Below are positions 3,758 to 60,438 of a stretch of 64,000 nucleotides of DNA, in pieces. This DNA is from Octopus sinensis. Taxonomy: Eukaryota. The position numbers and the translations under genes were made by a program. Under the pieces are notes generated by a model. It was not told the DNA's origin and made no database searches. It worked only from the letters and a program-made list of their open reading frames with translations. Location of the stretch: positions 131,874,001 to 131,938,000 of the forward strand of contig NC_043001.1 in assembly GCF_006345805.1 (NCBI RefSeq), in the 5' to 3' direction. How positions within the stretch are numbered: the first letter of the stretch is position 1; every line of letters begins with the position of its first letter.

Positions 3758-4016
3758 ATTAAGTTCTTTAAATATCTGTATGCATTCAATGTATATGCAT
3801 GTATGTATATATATATATATTATATATATATATATATACACACACATGTACATACATATATATATATGTGTGTATGTATCCCTATATATATATATATGAA
3901 TATATATTCATATACATATATGTGTGTTTGTGTGTATGTGGAATGTGCATATGTACTTGCACATTCCTGTACATATATATATTCACATACATATGTGTGT
4001 GTGTATATGTTTGCAT

Positions 4017-4072
<56 letters not shown>

Positions 4073-4085
4073 CAGACACATACAC
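2612..4085. repeat. Compound (TA)n/(TATG)n/(CA)n microsatellite region
   Basis: Directly visible; source of many spurious YI/HT/CV ORFs. Confidence 0.95.
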
Positions 4086-4764
4086 ACACTTATTCTAGGC
4101 AATTGGACATGCAAGGAGAAGAATAAGAGAAGAATGGCTAGAATCAATATATTTACATTGACAATTCGTTGTGTGGAATGGATGAGGTATTCTTCTGTTT
4201 TCTCTCAAATCTATCAAATGAGTTTTGTCCCATCCTGACAACTTTTTGAAACACCACAAGAGGCACTGAAATCATGAATATTCAATAGGACATAATTTAA
4301 ATAGTAAATATTTGAATTTTATAACAAAGAATAAACAATGGAAGTAAAAATTTTAAAAAGATAAAAAAAAAGAAAGAATGAAAGAAAGAAAGGAAAGAAA
4401 AAGAGAAAGAAATTTTTGAAAAATTATAAAATAAGGAAGAAATTTAGAAAAAGTGACAGGAATTGATCAATTAATATAAAGATAAAGGAAAACACCAATT
4501 GTTTTGCAACACTGCCCTTCCCCTCTGTACGCCACCTGGAAATATTATGAGAGAACTTTAAATGAAAAATGTGACAAATTTCAAAGATTATGCTAGTAAG
4601 ACTATTAATGTATATTATGCTAATTGGTTTGTGTTGTTGATGTCTAAGTATGGAGGAAAGATGGTACAAGGTTAAAAAGTTTGGTCTTATCTAATTGTTT
4701 CACTTTCGCTGAACCCAGCATCATGCCCATTCTAAAGCAGGACATCTGTAGATTATCACGTTTA

Positions 4765-5160
4765 AGTTTTGGCACAAGGCCAGCAATTTTGGGGGTGAAA
4801 TAGATTGATTAGACCAACTGTGACGATCAACTGGTACTTGTTTTATTGACTCCCCAAAAGAATGAAAGGCAAAATTGACCTCAGTGGAACCTGAGTTCAG
4901 AATATAAATGCAGACAAAATACCTATTTCTTTACTACCCACAAGGGGCTAAACACAGAGAGGACAAACAAGGACAGACAAATGAATTAAGCTGATTATAT
5001 CAACCCCAGTGCGTAACTGGTACTTATTTAATTGACTCCAAAAGGATGAAATGCAAAGTCGACCTCAGCGGAATTTGAACTCAGAATGTAACGGCAGACA
5101 AAATACCACTAAGCATTTTTCCAGGAATCCTAATGATCCTGCTAGCTCAGATAGCTCAGA
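4765..5160 (-). mobile_element. tRNA-derived SINE family B, two partial copies
   Basis: Reverse complement carries B-box GAGTTCAAATTCC and the conserved GTCGACTTTGC(C/A)TTTCATCC...AAGTACCAG domain seen in many copies in the window. Confidence 0.75.
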
Positions 5161-5209
5161 TATATATATATATACATACATACATACATATAAACATACA
5201 TACATACAT

Positions 5210-5373
5210 ACAGGAGTGGCTGTGTGGTAAGTAGCTTGCCTAGCAAACACATGGTTCTGGGTTCAGTCCCACTGCGTGGCACCTTGCACAAGTGTCTTCT
5301 ACTATAGCGTCAGGCCGACCATAGACTTGTGAGTGGATTTGGTAGATGGAAACTGAAAGAAGCCCGTCATATG

Positions 5374-5412
<39 letters not shown>

Positions 5413-5615
5413 CTGTGTCTGTTTGTCCCCCCAACATCGCTTGACAACCGATGCTGGTGTGTTTACATCCCCCTAACTTAATGGTTTGGCAAAAGAGAAC
5501 AATAGAACAAGTACTAGACTTGCAAAGAATGAGTCCTGGGGTCGATTTGCTTGACTAAAGGCGGTGCTCCAGCATGGCCACAGTCAACTGACTGAAACAA
5601 GTAAAAGAATCAAAG
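5210..5615 (+). mobile_element. tRNA-derived SINE family A (~410 bp)
   Basis: Head AGGAGTGGCTGTGTGGTAAG...GGGTTCAGTCCC (A/B boxes), internal TA/TG microsatellite, tail GAAACAAGTAAAAGA; about 10 near-full copies in the window. Confidence 0.85.
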
Positions 5616-5689
5616 AATATATATACATATATAACATATATATATATATAGCATATATATATATATACATACACACACATACATATATG

Positions 5690-5905
5690 TAACGGGAAGC
5701 TTTATGAAAATAAACAAAAGACGAAGGCAGGTGGAAAACAAACGAACAATTGTATTAGTATGGCGCTCAGGAAATATAAATAAAACAAGTCTTTAACGTT
5801 TCGAGCCTACGCTCTTCAACAGAAAGATACACAGAGAGAGAAAAACACAGAAAGAAGGAGAGAAAAAAAAAAAAAAAATGCGTGCAGTAGCTAACGAATC
5901 AACAT
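5690..5905 (-). mobile_element. Short Penelope-type repeat carrying a minimal hammerhead
   Basis: Homologous to 18343-18537 and 31642-31773; ends in (TA)n. Confidence 0.7.
5790..5827 (-). ncRNA. Minimal type I hammerhead-like motif, variant core CUGUUGA
   Basis: UCUUU CUGUUGA A GAGC GUAG GCUC GAAA CG UU AAAGA: stem I UCUUU/AAAGA, stem II GAGC/GCUC, palindromic ACGU stem III, GUU triplet. Confidence 0.6.
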
Positions 5906-5994
5906 GGCGATGGGTAGTCATGATAAGTATATTAGGTATTGTATATTTTACCCCAGTGTCACTTTGATGGCATGCACTGCTCTCTCACTTCCTT

Positions 5995-6957
5995 TCTAAT
6001 AAAAGCACAAGGCCTGAAATTTTGGGGGAGGGGACTAGTTGATTACATTGACCCTAGTGTTTCACTGGTATTTAATTTATTGACCCTGAAATGATGAAGG
6101 AAAAAGTCGACCTCAGCAGAATTTGAACTCAGAACGTAAAGACAGATAAAGTACCATTAAGCGTTTTCCCAGCTCACCACCTTAATAATAATAATAATGT
6201 TAATAATAATAATAGTAGTAGTAGTAGTAGTAGTAGTAATAATCCTTCTACTATAGGCACAAGCCTGAAATTTTGGGGGAGGGGACTAGTTGATTACATT
6301 GACCCCAGTGTTTCACTGGTATTTAATTTATCGACCCTGAAATGATGAAGGAAAAAGTCGACCTCAGCAGAATTTGAACTCAGAACGTAAAGACAGATAA
6401 AGTACCATTAAGCGTTTTCCCAGCTCACCACCTTAATAATAATAATGTTAATAATAATAATAGTAGTAGTAGTAGTAGTAGTAGTAATAATCCTTTCTAC
6501 TATAGGCACAAGCCCTGAAATTTTGGGGGAGGGGACTAGTTGATTACATTGACCCCAGTGTTTCACTGGTATTTAATTTATCGACCCTGAAAGGATGAAG
6601 GAAAAAGTCGACCTCAGCAGAATTTGAACTCAGAACGTAAAGACAGATAAAGTACCATTAAGCGTTTTCCCAGCTCACCACCTTAATAATAATAATGTTA
6701 ATAATAATAATAGTAGTAGTAGTAGTAGTAGTAGTAGTAATAATCCTTTCTACTATAGGCACAAGCCCTGAAATTTGGTAGGCAGGGAACCAGTCGATTA
6801 GATTAACCCCAGTATGCAACTGGTACTTAATTTATCAACACTGAAAGGATGAAAGGCAAAGTTGACCTTGGTGGAATTTGAACTCAGGACTTAAAAATGG
6901 ACAAAATGCTGCTAAGCATTTTGCCCACCATGCTAATGATTCTGCCAGCTCACTGCT

Positions 6958-11322: not shown

Positions 11323-11419
11323 TCAAGCGAATATGCTTTGGCTTTTCTCAGACGAGAGCGATTACTGCCTGCATGGCCGCAGTCAAATGACTGAAACAAG
11401 TAAAAAAAAAAAAAGGCAC

Positions 11420-11610
11420 CAACTGTCTTCGGAGATTCATATTGTCGTTCATTGCTCGAAATGAGGAGTAGATAGACAGCTGACAACTGATGAAGGGTCG
11501 TTCTTTATGTTACTTGTCCTGTTTTCCATTTGTTTCTCTAGTTTGCGTATTGAACTCATTTGTTTTTGTATTTCATGTTGTTTACTGTTGGTGACGTCCT
11601 GTACTCATAT
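11420..11610 (+). mobile_element. Short (TA)n-terminated repeat family (other copies 15040-15230, 15830-16035)
   Basis: Three homologous copies sharing CTCGAAA(T/C)GAG(G/A)AGTAGA...GATGAA(G/A)GGTCGTT...TGACGTCC(T/A)G, each running into TA repeats. Confidence 0.65.
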
Positions 11611-11632
11611 ATGCACGTGTGTGTGTATGTGC

Positions 11633-11667
<35 letters not shown>

Positions 11668-12509
11668 AATTTTTTGTCGACAATGCACCTACATTTGAAA
11701 AACTTGTAATTGTTTTCAAATGAATTTAATTACATATATGCCAAACTAGTTTCAACAATATTTTTTGTATATCAATGGTAAAAATTTAGAATTATGAATT
11801 AGAGAAACATGTTTAATAGTTTCAATGTTGACAAGTTTAAATATTCATAACAGTCAATAATTTAAAAACTGTGGATCCGCATATTTAAATGCACAAATTT
11901 CAATAATGTTTAATAATGATCGACAAGAAATGAATATCATCAAAGCTTCAGTCATACTGAATTAAGAGGAAGAAACACAAGGGAGAAATGAAGATATTAA
12001 AAAGGGGGTTTCGTTTATAGTTTCTGTGATTCTCATTCCGTCGTGTGCAGGAACTTTCGCTTGTAACGGCATTTATTGGAATCCGGTGTATATATAATAT
12101 TTTCCGCAAACATATCTGATTTTTGATTCGTTAAAGTACTGGTGATGTCTTGTATTTCTAGTGGTTAAGTTTGTCGTTCTATCTGGTTGGCTTTTCTCTG
12201 GGGAACGGTCATCAGCCGTTCCAGTTGGCTGATTCTCTTAAAGGGTCATTTTGTTGTATTTTCTGAAGTTCGGTTTTGATCGGAGGTAAAATTTCATTGG
12301 TCTAGAGTTAGGTAACGTCATCAACTTGTGTTTGTATGGCGTTATAATATGGTGATTTGGAGTTGCGGTTTCAAAACCCGGGTGGAAGACTGTTACTAAA
12401 GTTTCTATAATTGTCTTTCGTATCTTGTTGTTTTTTCTTGTTTTTTGTTTTGTGTATGGAGAAATTGAGTCTTTTTTCCTTTTTCTCTTTAATGTTTTTC
12501 TTCTTCTTT

Positions 12510-13157
12510 CTAAAGGGTATTCAGCTGCGGTTTATATTTTTAATGAGTAAGCTTTGCTTATTCGAACGGAGTTGTGTTGAAGAGTTTCCGGTGCATTCAT
12601 AGAGAGGGAAGATTTGGTATTTCGGGTTTATGTTTGTGGGGCATTGGTCTAGGTGTTTGCTTGCGGGAATTTTCCTGGTCCTAGGTTCACGGATCTGTTG
12701 CCTGTGTACCGTTAGTCAAGGTTAAACTAATTTGACCTATATAGTCTTCACCACACCCTCCACATTTGAGAACATAGATTAACTTCTTCGAAGCACAGGT
12801 GAAGTGCTTTTTTTATGGTGAAAGCTTCACCTGGCGTAAATGTGCATGTTGAGCCCTCTAAGAGAAAGTATGCAAATCCCGCAGTTAGGGAGATTGCACT
12901 TTTTGACGAATGGGGTTGTATTTTTGGTGGATAATTTCACACTGGTGAGCAACATTTTAGGGATTGCGGTTATCTCATGCTTTTAATAATCATACGTGTT
13001 TCCAGTGCTTTTTTCATTCGCAGGTCCTTGATAAGGAGGGGCATGTTTTGGTGGATAATGTATACTTCCATGCTCCACGGATTGTGTGTTCATACGTAAG
13101 ATAAAGTTTTAAGTGTGTCATGGTGTTTTCTTGTTTTCCGTAACTATTGGACGTGTA
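12510..13157 (-). pseudogene. Penelope-like element ORF remnant (linker and GIY-YIG endonuclease), disrupted
   Basis: Reverse translation across stops and frameshifts gives THNP...IIKSMR*PQSLK...KKCNLPNCGIC, then HFTCASKKLIYVLKCGGCGEDYIGQ...LTVHRQQIREP...SKHLDQC...YKPQLN. These are the typical Penelope CxxC and GIY-YIG motifs. Confidence 0.85.
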
Positions 13158-13306
13158 TCAAAAAATTTGCTTCACCACATACCGAAATTTAGAAATAGCA
13201 CTTAAAACTAGCTATTTCTCTACCATAAGTAAATCTCCCAGACAACAATACTCAACAACCCACGTAGGCAAAGAGAAAAGATAACGAATCCACCCGGCTT
13301 TGATTA

Positions 13307-13391
13307 ACTGTAGACGCGTTTCGGAGTTAGATAGATGTGAAAAATGTAAAAACCACATTTCCACTCTATCATTCTCACTCTTCAGTACAGT
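13307..13391 (-). ncRNA. Type I hammerhead ribozyme
   Basis: ACUGUA CUGAAGA G[long stem II hairpin]C GAAA CGCG UC UACAGU: 6-bp stem I, full core, palindromic ACGCGU stem III, GUC site. Confidence 0.85.
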
Positions 13392-13863
13392 ATTTCAAGA
13401 TTTTAAATTTGAGAGCGCTGTAAAAATTAAACATACCTTATCTGATCAAGCGTCATCAGACAACATACATCTAACAACCAGTACTTCCGAATTCAAACAG
13501 ACGAATGAGATCTTGTATTCTCCCTCACCTACCCACGTGTGCTACTGAGTAAAATTCTACTGAAAAAAACTGTAGTTTACTATCAGGGAGAGAATTATAT
13601 CATTATTAATAATAAAGGGTAAAATTAATTAATTAATTAATAATTAATAATTTTACCAAGTAGCTCGGTATGTTAAAAGAAACATTATCGATAAACTTAA
13701 TTTTTTAAATAATTATGAGTATAGTAATAATTAGGGTTCAGCAAAAAAATTTGCTTCACCACATACCGAAATTTAGAAATAGCAGTTAAAACTAGCTATT
13801 TCTCTACCATAAGAAAATCTACCAGACAATAATACTCAACAACCCGCGCAGGCAAAGGGAAAA

Positions 13864-13930
13864 ACTGTAGACGCGTTTCGGAGTTAGATGTGAAAAATGT
13901 AAAAACCACATTTTCACTCTTCAGTATAGT
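13864..13930 (-). ncRNA. Type I hammerhead ribozyme (shortened stem II, one stem I mismatch)
   Basis: ACUAUA CUGAAGA G...C GAAA CGCG UC UACAGU. Confidence 0.75.
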
Positions 13931-13959
13931 ATTTCAAAATTTTAAATCAGATAAGGTAT

Positions 13960-14372
13960 ACTCTTTTACTCTTTTACTTGTTTCAGTCATTTGACTGCGG
14001 CCATGCTGGAGCACCGCCTTTTAACCGAGCAACTCGACCCCGGGACTTATTCTTTTGTAAGCCCAGTACTTATTCTATCGGTCTCTTTTGCCGAACCGCT
14101 ATGTAACGGGGACATAAACACACCAGCATCGGTTGTCAAGCAATGCTAGGGGGTCAAACACAGATACACAAACGCACACACGCATATATATATATATATA
14201 CATATATACGACGGGCTTCTTTCAGTTTCCGTCTACCAAATCCACTCACGAGGCATTGGTCGGCCCGGGGCTATAGCAGAAGACACTTGCCCAAGATGCC
14301 ACGCAGTGGGACTGAACCCGGAACCATGTGGTTGGTTAGCAAGCTATTTACCACACAGCCACTCCTGCGCCT
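13960..14372 (-). mobile_element. tRNA-derived SINE family A inserted into the hammerhead repeat
   Basis: Full copy; splits host sequence TCAGATAAGGTAT|GTTTAATTTTTACAG. Confidence 0.9.
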
Positions 14373-14415
14373 ATGTTTAATTTTTACAGTGCTCTCAAAT
14401 TTAAAATCTTGAAAT

Positions 14416-14500
14416 ACTGTACTGAAGAGTAAGAATGATAGAGTGGAAATGTGGTTTTTACATTTTTCACATCTATCTAACTACGAAACGCGTCTACAGT
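14416..14500 (+). ncRNA. Type I hammerhead ribozyme
   Basis: ACUGUA CUGAAGA(14422-14428) G...C GAAA CGCG UC UACAGU; GUC at 14492-14494. Confidence 0.85.
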
Positions 14501-14794
14501 TAACCAAAGCCGGGTGGATTCGTAATTTTTTCTCTTTGCCTGCGTGGGTTGTGGAGTATTTACTCGGAGATTTACTTATGGTAGAGAAATTGCAAGTTTT
14601 AACTGCTATTTCTAGATTTCGGTATGTAATGAAGCAAATTTTTTGCTGAACTCTAATTATAATTATACTCATAATTATAAAAAGTTTTGTTTAAGTTTAC
14701 CGATAATGGTTCTTTTAACATACCAAACTACTTGGTAAAATTATTAATTATTAATTGATTAATTAATTTTACCTTTTATTATTATTGACACACA

Positions 14795-14882
<88 letters not shown>

Positions 14883-15288
14883 ATATATATACATATCTAT
14901 ACACACATATATATATACGTAAATTTATATACATATATATATACATGCCTATATATGTATATATACATATACATACACACACACACACATACACATACAC
15001 ATATATATATGCACACGCACACATACATATATTTATGGGAGCAAGAGTCTTCGAAGACACATGTTATCGTTCAATACTCGAAACGAGAAGTAGACAGACA
15101 GTCGGCAACTGATGAAAGGTCGTTTTCGTGTTACTTGTCCTGTTTTCCATTTGTTTCTCTGTTGTTTCGTATTGAACTCATTTGTTTTCGTATTTCATGT
15201 TGTTTACTGTTGGTGACGTCCAGTACCTATATATCCTTACATCCTTAAAAATGCTTTAGCCCGAAGGCCGCGGCCATGCTGGGGCACC

Positions 15289-15518: not shown

Positions 15519-15760
15519 TTAGATGACTGCTCTCACGGAGCGCATCGCTATGCGCTCGTGAGAGCAGTCATCTAAAGGTTTTTGTGAATCTTGATGTTGA
15601 CATAAATTCTTGTTTTTCCTGATGAGAAAGCGGCATAATGTACGCCTTATTCCTTCACAATTAGGAATATGCAGCCTTCGAAACATATGTCGAAAATAAA
15701 GGAAATTTGTTAATTTGTCGTTCAACTCCATTCTTTCATTTATTCATAAATTTTATAAAT
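15519..15760 (+). mobile_element. (TA)n-embedded element with 5' fold-back and hammerhead
   Basis: 26-bp hairpin at 15519-15575, hammerhead at 15614-15696, TA arrays on both sides. Confidence 0.7.
15614..15696 (+). ncRNA. Type I hammerhead ribozyme
   Basis: UUUUC CUGAUGA GAAAGCGGCAUA...UAUGCAGCCUUC GAAA CAUAUG UC GAAAA; palindromic ACAUAUGU stem III; GUC at 15689-15691. Confidence 0.85.
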
Positions 15761-16069
15761 ATATATATATATATATATATATACTAAGTTTAACCCTCTA
15801 CAAATCCCAAATTTTATTTGGCTTGCGGGAGCAACTGTTTTCTCGAAAACACATCTTGTCGTAATTACTCGAAATGAGGAGTAGATAAACAGCCGATAAC
15901 AGATGAAGGGTCGTTCTTTATGTTATTTGTCTTGTTTTCCATTCGTTCCTTCCGTTGTTCACAAAAGAAGTTCGTATTCCCTGTTTTTGTATTTCGTATT
16001 TCACGTTGTTTACATTTTATGACGTCCTGCACCCATATATGCATATATATGTATGAACATATATGTATG

Positions 16070-16208: not shown

Positions 16209-16435
16209 TAGTTATCGCCATACTAATATGGCATTCTTATAAAATAAGAAAAAAGCTGTCCGCTTATTAGCTCCATGAGGCCATCGCCTTAAGTTAGCTA
16301 ATAAGCTAATGGAGCGATAAGCGGACAGCTTTTCTATTTTATAAGAATGCCATATTAGTATGGCGATAACTATTATTTTCCGGAACGCTGCCGCTGTTCT
16401 CTTTTAGAGAGACTTAGTTATTTAATATTTCTATT
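16209..16435 (+). mobile_element. Fold-back element in (TA)n (second copy 31817-32073)
   Basis: ~65-bp inverted arms TAGTTATCGCCATACTAATATGGCATTCTTATAAAATA / TATTTTATAAGAATGCCATATTAGTATGGCGATAACTA plus a shared tail TTTAGAGAGACTTAGT. Confidence 0.75.
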
Positions 16436-31084: not shown

Positions 31085-31620
31085 ATTGATAATTATTCCA
31101 AATTAATTAATTTCACCCTTCATTGTTACTGATAACCATATTCATCCCAGTAAATGACCACAGCACTTTGTCTTGGCTACACGCGGGTGGGAAGGGACTG
31201 GTGACACAAACTTTCATTCAAACTTTGAATTTGGTGATACTGGCTGTGGCTTCTAGCTCGCTCTGATACTGAGTTGAGTTGGTGCCTTCTAGTATCTCAA
31301 AATTCAATATACAATCATTCATGATTGTTCGTATCCTGCGCTGATGAGAGAAGAAGTATGGGTAAGGTAGAATTATCTAATTCTTATACTTTCCTAAGAC
31401 TTGATCTCGAAACGTACGTCCGTAGGTGACTTAAAACTGTATGATAGATTGCCGTTAATTCATTCTCTCTTACCTGTTTGTGTTTTGCCTTTCAAATGCT
31501 GTGTTTTTGCTGAGATCTCCCTTTTAGTAGAAGAAATAGCTATAATCTCTTTGACTGCTATTTCTAAATTCGGTGTGCGGTAAGGCAATTCGTTGCTAAA
31601 CCCTTAATTGCTTAGTATAA
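31085..31620 (+). mobile_element. Retrozyme-like monomer, diverged homologue of the 13158-14785 unit, between TA arrays
   Basis: Shares AATTAATTAATTT-ACCCTT, CACG(C/T)GGGT(G/A)GG and ACTGCTATTTCTA(A/G)ATT(T)CGGT blocks in the same order around a hammerhead. Confidence 0.7.
31335..31426 (+). ncRNA. Type I hammerhead ribozyme
   Basis: CCUGCG CUGAUGA GAGA[long hairpin]UCUC GAAA CGUACG UC CGUAGG: 6-bp stem I, palindromic ACGUACGU stem III, GUC at 31418-31420. Confidence 0.9.
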
Positions 31621-59265: not shown

Positions 59266-60438
59266 GGGATCTTTTCTATTCTGAAGCCAGTTTTTTCAAA
59301 TTTTTCCTACTGAACCAAACAATTTGAAACTTCGTATACTGGTAGAATGTGTCAAAAGTAAACTTAATTGTAAACCAGAATGAAAACGGAATTGTAACTT
59401 CTAAGTTTAACGTTGTTTAATAATTAGAATTTTAACCAATGATATTCCGTCATTCGGCTTTATTTTATTTACTCCGTCTCGACCACCAATTTCGTGACGT
59501 ATTAAACATCTTAAATGTAAACAAGCGTGTGTGAAGAGACAGAGAGAGTAATGTGTGAAAGAGAGAGATAACTGAAATTTTTTACTCGGTGTATGTGTAT
59601 ATGTATGTCTGCATGTATGTGTGTGTGTGTATGTGTAAGTATGTGTGTGTGTATGTATGTGTGTGTGTATGTATGTATGGCCGATTCATCGTAATTACGA
59701 TGAATCGGCCATACATACATAGATACATACACACACACACATACATGCAGACATACATATACACATACACCGAGTAAAAAATTTCAGTTATCTCTCTCTT
59801 TCACACATTACTCTCTCTGTCTCTTCACACACACTAACAGAAGCACTTCACTTACACAACATACTGTCTCCCACACCCCATCAAACACACACACACACAC
59901 ACACACATGTACATCAATGCTTCCCCTAGACGGTAACTTCAAAGACAAACTTCCCTCGTCATAAAATCGCTTCCTCTTAGTCTCTTTCGCTCTCATTACT
60001 TATGTAAAAAAATAAAAGTTTTTTACGGAAATCGACGGAAAACTTGTGCTACGACAAGAGAAACTTCGCCGAAATTTAATATTAAAAAAGCAAAGAGCTG
60101 GCAGAAACGTTAGCACGCCGGGCGAAATGCGTAGCCGTATTTCGTCTGCCGTTACGTTCTGTGTTTGTTTACAGTTTTCCGAACGTTAGTACGTCACAAA
60201 AGCGCTTTCTACGTCACACTAATAGAATGCAGTCAAGTTTTACACATGAAAACAAACAATCTGATTGGTTAAAATTCGCAGTTTTAATCTACGATTAAAG
60301 TCATAAAATAGATTTTTCTCAAATAAACTAGTTCCAACCTGTGTCTTGTTTTGCTAGACTCTATCAGCATACGAAGTTTCAGATTATTTAGTTAAGTAGA
60401 AAGATCTGTGGTCCTGGCTTCAGAATTGAAAAGATCCC
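59266..60438. mobile_element. Non-autonomous TIR element containing a large palindrome
   Basis: GGGATCTTTTCTATTCTGAAGCCAG / CTGGCTTCAGAATTGAAAAGATCCC plus further inverted blocks (GAAACTTCGTAT/ATACGAAGTTTC; AATTTTAACCAAT/ATTGGTTAAAATT). Confidence 0.65.
59527..59832. repeat. Spacerless ~300-bp palindrome
   Basis: Centre ATGGCCGATTCATCGTAA|TTACGATGAATCGGCCAT; arms match except in the microsatellite tract. Confidence 0.9.

Follow-up and report, generated by a model that had tools for sequence, protein, structure and literature searches.

Does the locus at 13159-14787, with two hammerhead motifs in tandem and a third in inverted orientation, release a circular RNA of about 557 nt, or is it a remnant of something active elsewhere? 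A motif scan of the window, by which we mean the whole 64,000-nt stretch of DNA analyzed here, located five hammerhead-like cores. Three of them, CTGAAGA...GAAACGCGTC at 13924-13870 (-), 13385-13313 (-) and 14422-14494 (+), lie where the original prediction had placed two minus-strand hammerheads and an inverted one, and the two minus-strand GUC sites (13313 and 13870) are exactly 557 nt apart, as it had stated. The remaining two cores are at 15619-15691 and 31341-31424. Hammerhead 1 (13864-13930, -; cut site after 13870) is a type I motif with a minimal stem III, and it is damaged: stem II is short by 18 nt (14 + 4 nt lost), stem I has an A-C mismatch, and a 27-nt deletion lies just downstream. 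Hammerhead 2 (13307-13391, -; cut site after 13313) is intact in sequence, with CUGAAGA and GAAACGCGUC, and hammerhead 3 (14416-14500, +; cut site after 14494) has an intact core with a weaker stem II base. In both of these, stem I (ACUGUA/UACAGU) is 6 bp long and stem II spans 56 nt.

The predicted hammerhead fold of hammerhead 1 comes out at +1.5 kcal/mol against -10.4 kcal/mol for its best alternative, and the hammerhead folds of hammerheads 2 and 3 are predicted to lie no more than 1.5 kcal/mol from the best folds. Stem III is the palindrome ACGCGU, which permits no normal hairpin closure and pairs with itself at -7.5 kcal/mol, the arrangement described for dimer-dependent Penelope hammerheads (PMC4209133). 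This palindrome and the long stem II (56 nt in hammerheads 2 and 3, 38 nt left in hammerhead 1) had both been noticed earlier and are confirmed. In the geometry of a double hammerhead, each half cuts its partner's site, so that cleavage at 13313 would depend on the damaged hammerhead 1; intact core 2 would cut site 1, and monomer release at this locus is predicted to be poor. The claim that the locus releases a monomer of ~557 nt is not supported, since that size comes from the 27-nt deletion and hammerhead 1 is predicted to misfold, and the locus is probably a decayed copy rather than a source. The Rfam search that had been proposed as a check did not recover the motifs: there was no match in the window at the gathering score and there were seven at E up to 10, none of them a hammerhead.

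Other hammerhead-like sequences were observed in the window and beyond it. The motif at 15610-15700 (+) has CUGAUGA, a long stem II, GAAACAUAUGUC and a stem I of UUUUC/GAAAA; the short repeat that holds it is also present in L131 and L136 and apparently belongs to another family. Hammerheads with a long stem II and other palindromic versions of stem III are found at L007:2511-2615 (-), L025:3063-3145 (+) and L025:2520-2602 (-), suggesting that a long stem II is common among the Penelope-type ribozymes of this genome. A repeat of ~240 nt with three copies in the window (11418-11655, 15031-15245 and 15786-16068) ends in (TA)n and holds GAAAC and CUGAUGA in permuted order, with no convincing hammerhead fold by eye.

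The region 13159-14787 is one old head-to-head insertion, made of a 1.35-unit head-to-tail arm and an inverted arm. The main arm (13159-13947, -) consists of a 5′-truncated partial unit, one full unit and ~155 nt, head-to-tail; it is without its 3′ tip and abuts an older Penelope fragment. Head-to-head with it stand the first 14 nt of the inverted arm (13946-13959, +), which is split by the later insertion of a SINE-like repeat of ~410 nt (13960-14371, -). The inverted arm resumes in register at 14372 with "tat" duplicated, and this remainder (14372-14787, +) stops at the family's second 3′ terminus, unit position ~291, where an (AC)n/(TA)n microsatellite, of the kind that the family usually targets, occupies 14788-15040. 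At least nine other copies of the SINE-like repeat are in the window at 85-94% identity, and we read its sequence as probably containing tRNA-type promoter boxes. The neighboring 3′ fragment of a Neptune-type Penelope element (11650-13160, -), with a Cys linker and a GIY-YIG domain, is older, frameshifted and outside the element. The arms at the locus differ by 3-6% from the commonest letters. Elsewhere, the unit measures 589, 585 and 565 nt in natural copies with two hammerheads and 543 nt in a copy of a sister family; the family unit is ~585 nt, and 557 nt is the size of the window copy after its 27-nt deletion. The monomer (31% GC) is non-coding, as had been claimed, with a longest ATG frame on either strand of 39 codons.

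Hundreds of copies of the ~585-nt unit are scattered in the genome, spread over most large contigs, and the unit stands at the head of a clade of non-coding repeats that are circularly permuted. A search with the unit, proposed earlier as a test of copy number, returned 2727 candidates, of which the best 40 were scored. The 3′ half of the core has 82 exact matches genome-wide and none in a reversed control, and a looser whole-core pattern has 271 matches (100 of them listed) against 5 in the control, which bears out the expectation of a large retrozyme-like family. Counting unit position 1 as the first nucleotide after the cut site, the 3′ ends of 144 mapped arms fall at positions 186-197 in 47 and at 284-310 in 50, and a microsatellite follows 81 of the 97 arms at these two termini, compared with 21 of 108 5′ flanks. 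Any target-site duplications would be masked by these microsatellites. The 5′ ends of the same 144 arms are scattered round the unit. The copies thus carry the marks of Penelope-type mobilization (truncated 5′ ends, partial tandems, an inverted 5′ arm, more than one 3′ terminus and a (TA)n target), including the tandem and inverted ends that had been proposed for the locus.

Tandem double hammerheads are not, however, typical of the subfamily, as the original prediction had implied. One hammerhead is present in 104 of the 144 mapped arms and two in only 4, and the longest arm is 1.8 units. The initial searches favored long copies; in the less biased census of exact cores, 3 of 66 arms hold more than one unit. 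Among the 82 exact cores there are three head-to-head pairs and one co-oriented pair within 1 kb, which is the window's own. For the head-to-head pairs at large, 12 of 32 have one arm at each of the two 3′ termini, which suggests that a single RNA species was primed internally, at one site or the other. Sister families are 65-80% identical along the unit.

Patterns of substitution indicate that the ribozyme core and stems are under selection. In an alignment of 54 motifs, which omits five with internal deletions and the window's hammerhead 1, 89.9% of cells are paired and two-sided changes number 51 compared with 25.0 +/- 3.2 in shuffles, a measure that is inflated by the relatedness of the sequences. 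Compensatory changes occur in stems I and II, and at 20 sister-family loci at least five of the six stem I pairs are kept in 23 of 25 motifs despite different sequences. Variation in the core is mostly at the free positions N7 and H17. A strict core test was passed by 19 of 59 motifs, as expected of ageing copies. The predicted circular fold of the monomer beats 40 shuffles (z -5.1 and -3.3), and the consensus, drawn from 30 of the 40 longer segments available, is a rod tipped by the ribozyme, and two-sided changes are seen at 17 of its 56 pairs (30 sequences).

A separate insertion at 31085-31620 (+) belongs to a young sister family with a 586-nt unit and 38% GC. Its hammerhead at ~31335-31430 (core 31341-31424) has a longer palindromic stem III, ACGUACGU, and its relatives are 94-100% identical (best 40 of 1939 candidates). 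The young unit aligns with the window monomer over 488 nt, in the same circular register, with ~74% of aligned columns identical, and 51 of 54 young arms end at 191-206 or 290-308, followed by (TA)n. Young arrays (G000:C15:27545259-27547956; C14:26944881-26946936; C3:53481298-53484569) reach 3.5, 4.6 and 4.8 units with up to five co-oriented motifs. Across 15 array monomers, divergence is 0.8% within arrays and 3.0% between them, and in most cases the units and inverted arms of a young insertion are of the same haplotype, the outcome expected if reverse transcription goes round a circle. In the longest array, two neighboring units have three private changes in common, suggesting that at least one unit arose by local duplication after the insertion or is an artefact of assembly. 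The sequence ACCCT occurs exactly twice in both the young monomer and the window monomer, in every case a short way ahead of a 3′ terminus. It also precedes the second terminus of the candidate helper described below, which is no more than a hint. For assays of cleavage and circular RNA, the young sister family is a better target than the flagged locus, a decayed copy that matters mainly as a pointer.

The unit has neither a reverse transcriptase (RT) nor a GIY-YIG ORF, so it is not an autonomous Penelope-like element. An intact Neptune-type Penelope family is the likely helper. This abundant family has a 784-aa RT + GIY-YIG ORF with a Cys-x4-Cys-x2-Cys linker, intact in many copies, and all 150 scored copies are 94-100% identical over the endonuclease region; its clade is assigned from the Cys linker and the domain order alone. 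The linker marks the Neptune and Nematis clades and has been suggested to direct (TA)n targeting (PMC8557442). Among 35 of its 3′ ends, 19 are at a first AT-rich site, although two or three of these have a variant form of the longer end. Another 13 fall at a second site ~35 nt farther along, and the remaining 3 run into the next unit; the two-terminus (TA)n pattern of the non-coding unit is found in 32 of the 35. Partnership rests on this shared behavior because the unit is without significant similarity to the helper 3′ UTR, and a blastn search of the unit against two Neptune-type families gave no significant match. In the intact family (L091:2605-3915 and 3855-6206, +; L094), a second frame of 437 codons lies upstream of the RT-endonuclease frame and overlaps it. 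The 3′ UTR of the intact family has a short hammerhead-like motif with the core UUGAAAA, not CUGANGA.

Several candidates for a parent of the unit were rejected. Descent from the abundant intact Neptune-type family does not fit a 3′ UTR that is unrelated and has its own short hammerhead-like motif. The adjacent GIY-YIG fragment (11650-13160), which is 33-38% identical to that family, is no better a parent, as 11 other loci of the fragment's family are without a significant unit match; four loci of this family align to the junction and then continue with their own sequence. In L013 the unit is preceded by a fragment of a Penelope endonuclease, but this fragment ends in a 3′ terminus of its own and is separated from the unit by a microsatellite. 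With one Penelope protein as the probe for a parent ORF, the 800 nt upstream of 66 hammerhead-bearing arms contained neither a Penelope ORF on the sense strand nor any flank outside the unit that the arms had in common. At 38 further loci there were scattered Penelope fragments only, none contiguous with the 5′ end of the unit; 20 sister loci had no Penelope ORF adjoining the unit, and 45 young-family loci had one Penelope fragment, outside the unit.

What RNA, then, served as the template? Anchoring immediately past the cut site gave 66 distinct copies, and 58 of them extend upstream through it; the usual template was therefore an uncut or a re-joined RNA and not a cleaved linear monomer. The other eight stop within ~10 nt of the cut site compared with 3.7 expected, a weak and post hoc excess (P ~0.04) in which several boundaries are ambiguous. 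Duplicated parts of an insertion agree at subfamily-diagnostic sites in 109 of 125 cases for tandem and 189 of 209 for inverted duplicates, where ~0.50 is expected, and this argues for what appears to be a single template haplotype per insertion. They are closer to each other than to the median outside copy in 21 of 22 tandem and 25 of 26 inverted pairs; the within-insertion distance is at or below both nearest outside distances in just 3 of the 22 tandem pairs and 5 of the 26 inverted ones. The tandem duplicates hold 184 differences, with 15 position-direction types in at least two loci, many of them at CpG or in both directions. A fixed tandem master with differing 5′ and 3′ copies was considered and rejected, as there is no clear inherited pattern.

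Based on the insertions and the ribozyme together, we think it likely that the RT and endonuclease of a Neptune-type Penelope element copied the unit from an RNA that had cut itself and been re-joined into a circle; the circle itself we infer from insertion anatomy alone. A source with at least two intact hammerheads would be transcribed, and the ribozymes would cut, probably as dimers formed through the palindromic stem III. A host ligase would join the monomer to a rod-shaped circle, as proposed for other retrozymes. The helper endonuclease would then nick (TA)n DNA, with priming at either of a pair of AU-rich sites that lie ~190 and ~300 nt beyond the cut, and reverse transcription would go back over the cut site, sometimes more than once round the circle. 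A second priming would make the inverted arm. The elements of this scheme have precedents: a ribozyme-made circle was proposed in 2014, as a hypothesis, for Penelope insertions longer than a unit (PMC4209133), and a circle mobilized by Penelope RT has already been proposed for animal non-LTR retrozymes (PMC7229834; bioRxiv 10.64898/2026.07.22.740005). A broader history, to which we give slightly less than even odds, is that the genome harbors an old clade of circular RNA parasites that encode no protein and were active until recently, whose members have diverged by 20-35% in the absence of any parent ORF. Their insertions would then record Penelope RT that primes internally, at a pair of AU-rich sites on a circle closed by the ribozyme, and runs round it up to five times, in either direction. 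In the sequencing-run records covered (4 of 24, all contigs, with none of the listed runs recorded as RNA), scattered low-depth fragments of the family were present and the SINE-like repeat dominated the tables, a result that bears neither way on expression.

Some of our data count against a circle. Very similar DNA would result if the RT copied a linear multimer that had not been cut, or if it jumped between templates, and arms with two hammerheads are few in the unit's own subfamily, as are those longer than a unit. An explanation along these lines, in which the same helper copies a transcript longer than a unit, the hammerhead rarely cuts and there is no circle, seems to us unlikely, even though uncut RNA would explain just as well why copies extend through the cut site, and 16 of 125 tandem and 20 of 209 inverted comparisons disagree at diagnostic sites. 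It also gains from reports that minimal Penelope hammerheads cut poorly in vitro (PMC4209133) and that eight of nine predicted Xenopus retrozyme dimers did not cut (bioRxiv 10.64898/2026.07.22.740005). With an uncut template, 5′ truncation would shorten each generation, yet families that have diverged by 20-35% still have the same head-to-tail junction; single-haplotype arrays of up to 4.8 units also speak against it, as do a core and stems that are still under selection. That the flagged locus is itself an active source of 557-nt circular RNA is more doubtful still. The sequences of the two catalytic cores and of the two GUC sites are undamaged, and in a modelled transcript stem I of hammerhead 2 forms with a probability of 0.76-0.96. 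The same model, however, gives stem I and the G10.1-C11.1 pair of hammerhead 1 a probability of 0, the cut at 13313 would rely on that hammerhead, and the arms differ from the commonest letters by the 3-6% noted above.

In its type of hammerhead, its inverted arms and its targets the unit resembles Penelope elements, and pseudo-LTRs have been reported to be related to retrozymes (bioRxiv 10.64898/2026.07.22.740005), so one may ask whether the unit is the pseudo-LTR (3′ UTR) of an unsampled autonomous Penelope element, the more so as the genome searches scored the best candidates only (e.g. the best 40 of 2727). We regard this as very improbable given the flanks of the 66 arms and of the 38 further, 20 sister and 45 young-family loci, where no Penelope ORF is contiguous with the unit; upstream of the ribozyme, sequence instead enters the previous unit. 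The original prediction had named the pseudo-LTR of a known Penelope element as the finding that would overturn it, and the unit matches neither Penelope family examined and has no ORF adjoining. The idea of a satellite repeat amplified solely by local DNA duplication has in its favor that neighboring units in two young arrays have private changes in common. Dispersal over most large contigs, fixed 3′ ends, variable 5′ truncation and inverted arms leave it hardly any credence, and as the main mechanism it is contradicted by the end pattern.

Returning to the ribozyme-closed circle copied by a Penelope helper, the sequence features place the element among animal non-LTR retrozymes, as a non-autonomous Penelope-type member with an unusually long stem II, for which cleavage and circles are predicted only. 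Like animal non-LTR retrozymes, it is non-coding, AT-rich (31-38% GC for the unit and the young family) and self-pairing, has one type I hammerhead per unit, forms head-to-tail repeats and co-occurs with autonomous Penelope elements (PMC7229834; bioRxiv 10.64898/2026.07.22.740005). Its unit of ~585 nt (543-589 nt) is above the 170-400 nt RNAs of one account (PMC7229834), and inside the 51-972 bp range given in another (bioRxiv 10.64898/2026.07.22.740005). It is also outside a range of 150-450 bp. It is unlike them in a stem II of 38-66 nt as opposed to a short helix, and in occurring mostly as dispersed single truncated copies with inverted arms, not as long arrays. A palindromic minimal helix III, often with an unpaired base near the base of stem II, is shared with the Penelope hammerheads of Neptune and Nematis type, and partial tandems, an inverted 5′-truncated arm, alternative 3′ termini and (TA)n targets are shared with the elements that carry them (PMC4209133; PMC8557442). 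In contrast to those elements, the unit has no RT or endonuclease ORF, its 3′ termini are ~110 nt apart compared with a tail of 30-40 bp, and its helix II far exceeds the 7-8 bp described for minimal Penelope hammerheads (PMC4209133; PMC8557442). Plant LTR retrozymes are also ribozyme-bounded non-coding retroelements of similar size with a proposed circular RNA route, but they differ in having type III hammerheads in LTRs, >55% GC, 4-bp target duplications and Gypsy helpers (PMC7229834; bioRxiv 10.64898/2026.07.22.740005).

The kind of element is already known, and the lineage appears to be undescribed. We found no description of a cephalopod retrozyme in the literature, and Repbase or Dfam may hold the repeat under a Penelope or unknown name; the main text of a 2026 octopus repeat annotation does not contain the word "ribozyme" (PMC13282606). 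Retrozymes would extend to a lineage for which we found no report. How Penelope-like elements make tandem, inverted and longer-than-unit insertions is an open question, and the presence in one genome of a 586-nt unit, young arrays, two mapped priming sites and an intact candidate helper makes the circle model cheap to test. If true, it would provide a minimal system for proving the origin of Penelope pseudo-LTRs and inverted ends, and it would add a type of hammerhead with a long stem II that Rfam misses; standard Rfam scans pass over hundreds of these. A further copy of the unit's family lies at G000:C5:131966170 (L141), ~28 kb past the end of the window. Within the window, a 250-nt unit is repeated in tandem at 5990-6895 (3.6 copies with 93% matches), and near-perfect palindromes or long inverted repeats at 15524-15574, 16210-16385 and 59648-59741 are probably miniature inverted-repeat elements or foldback insertions.
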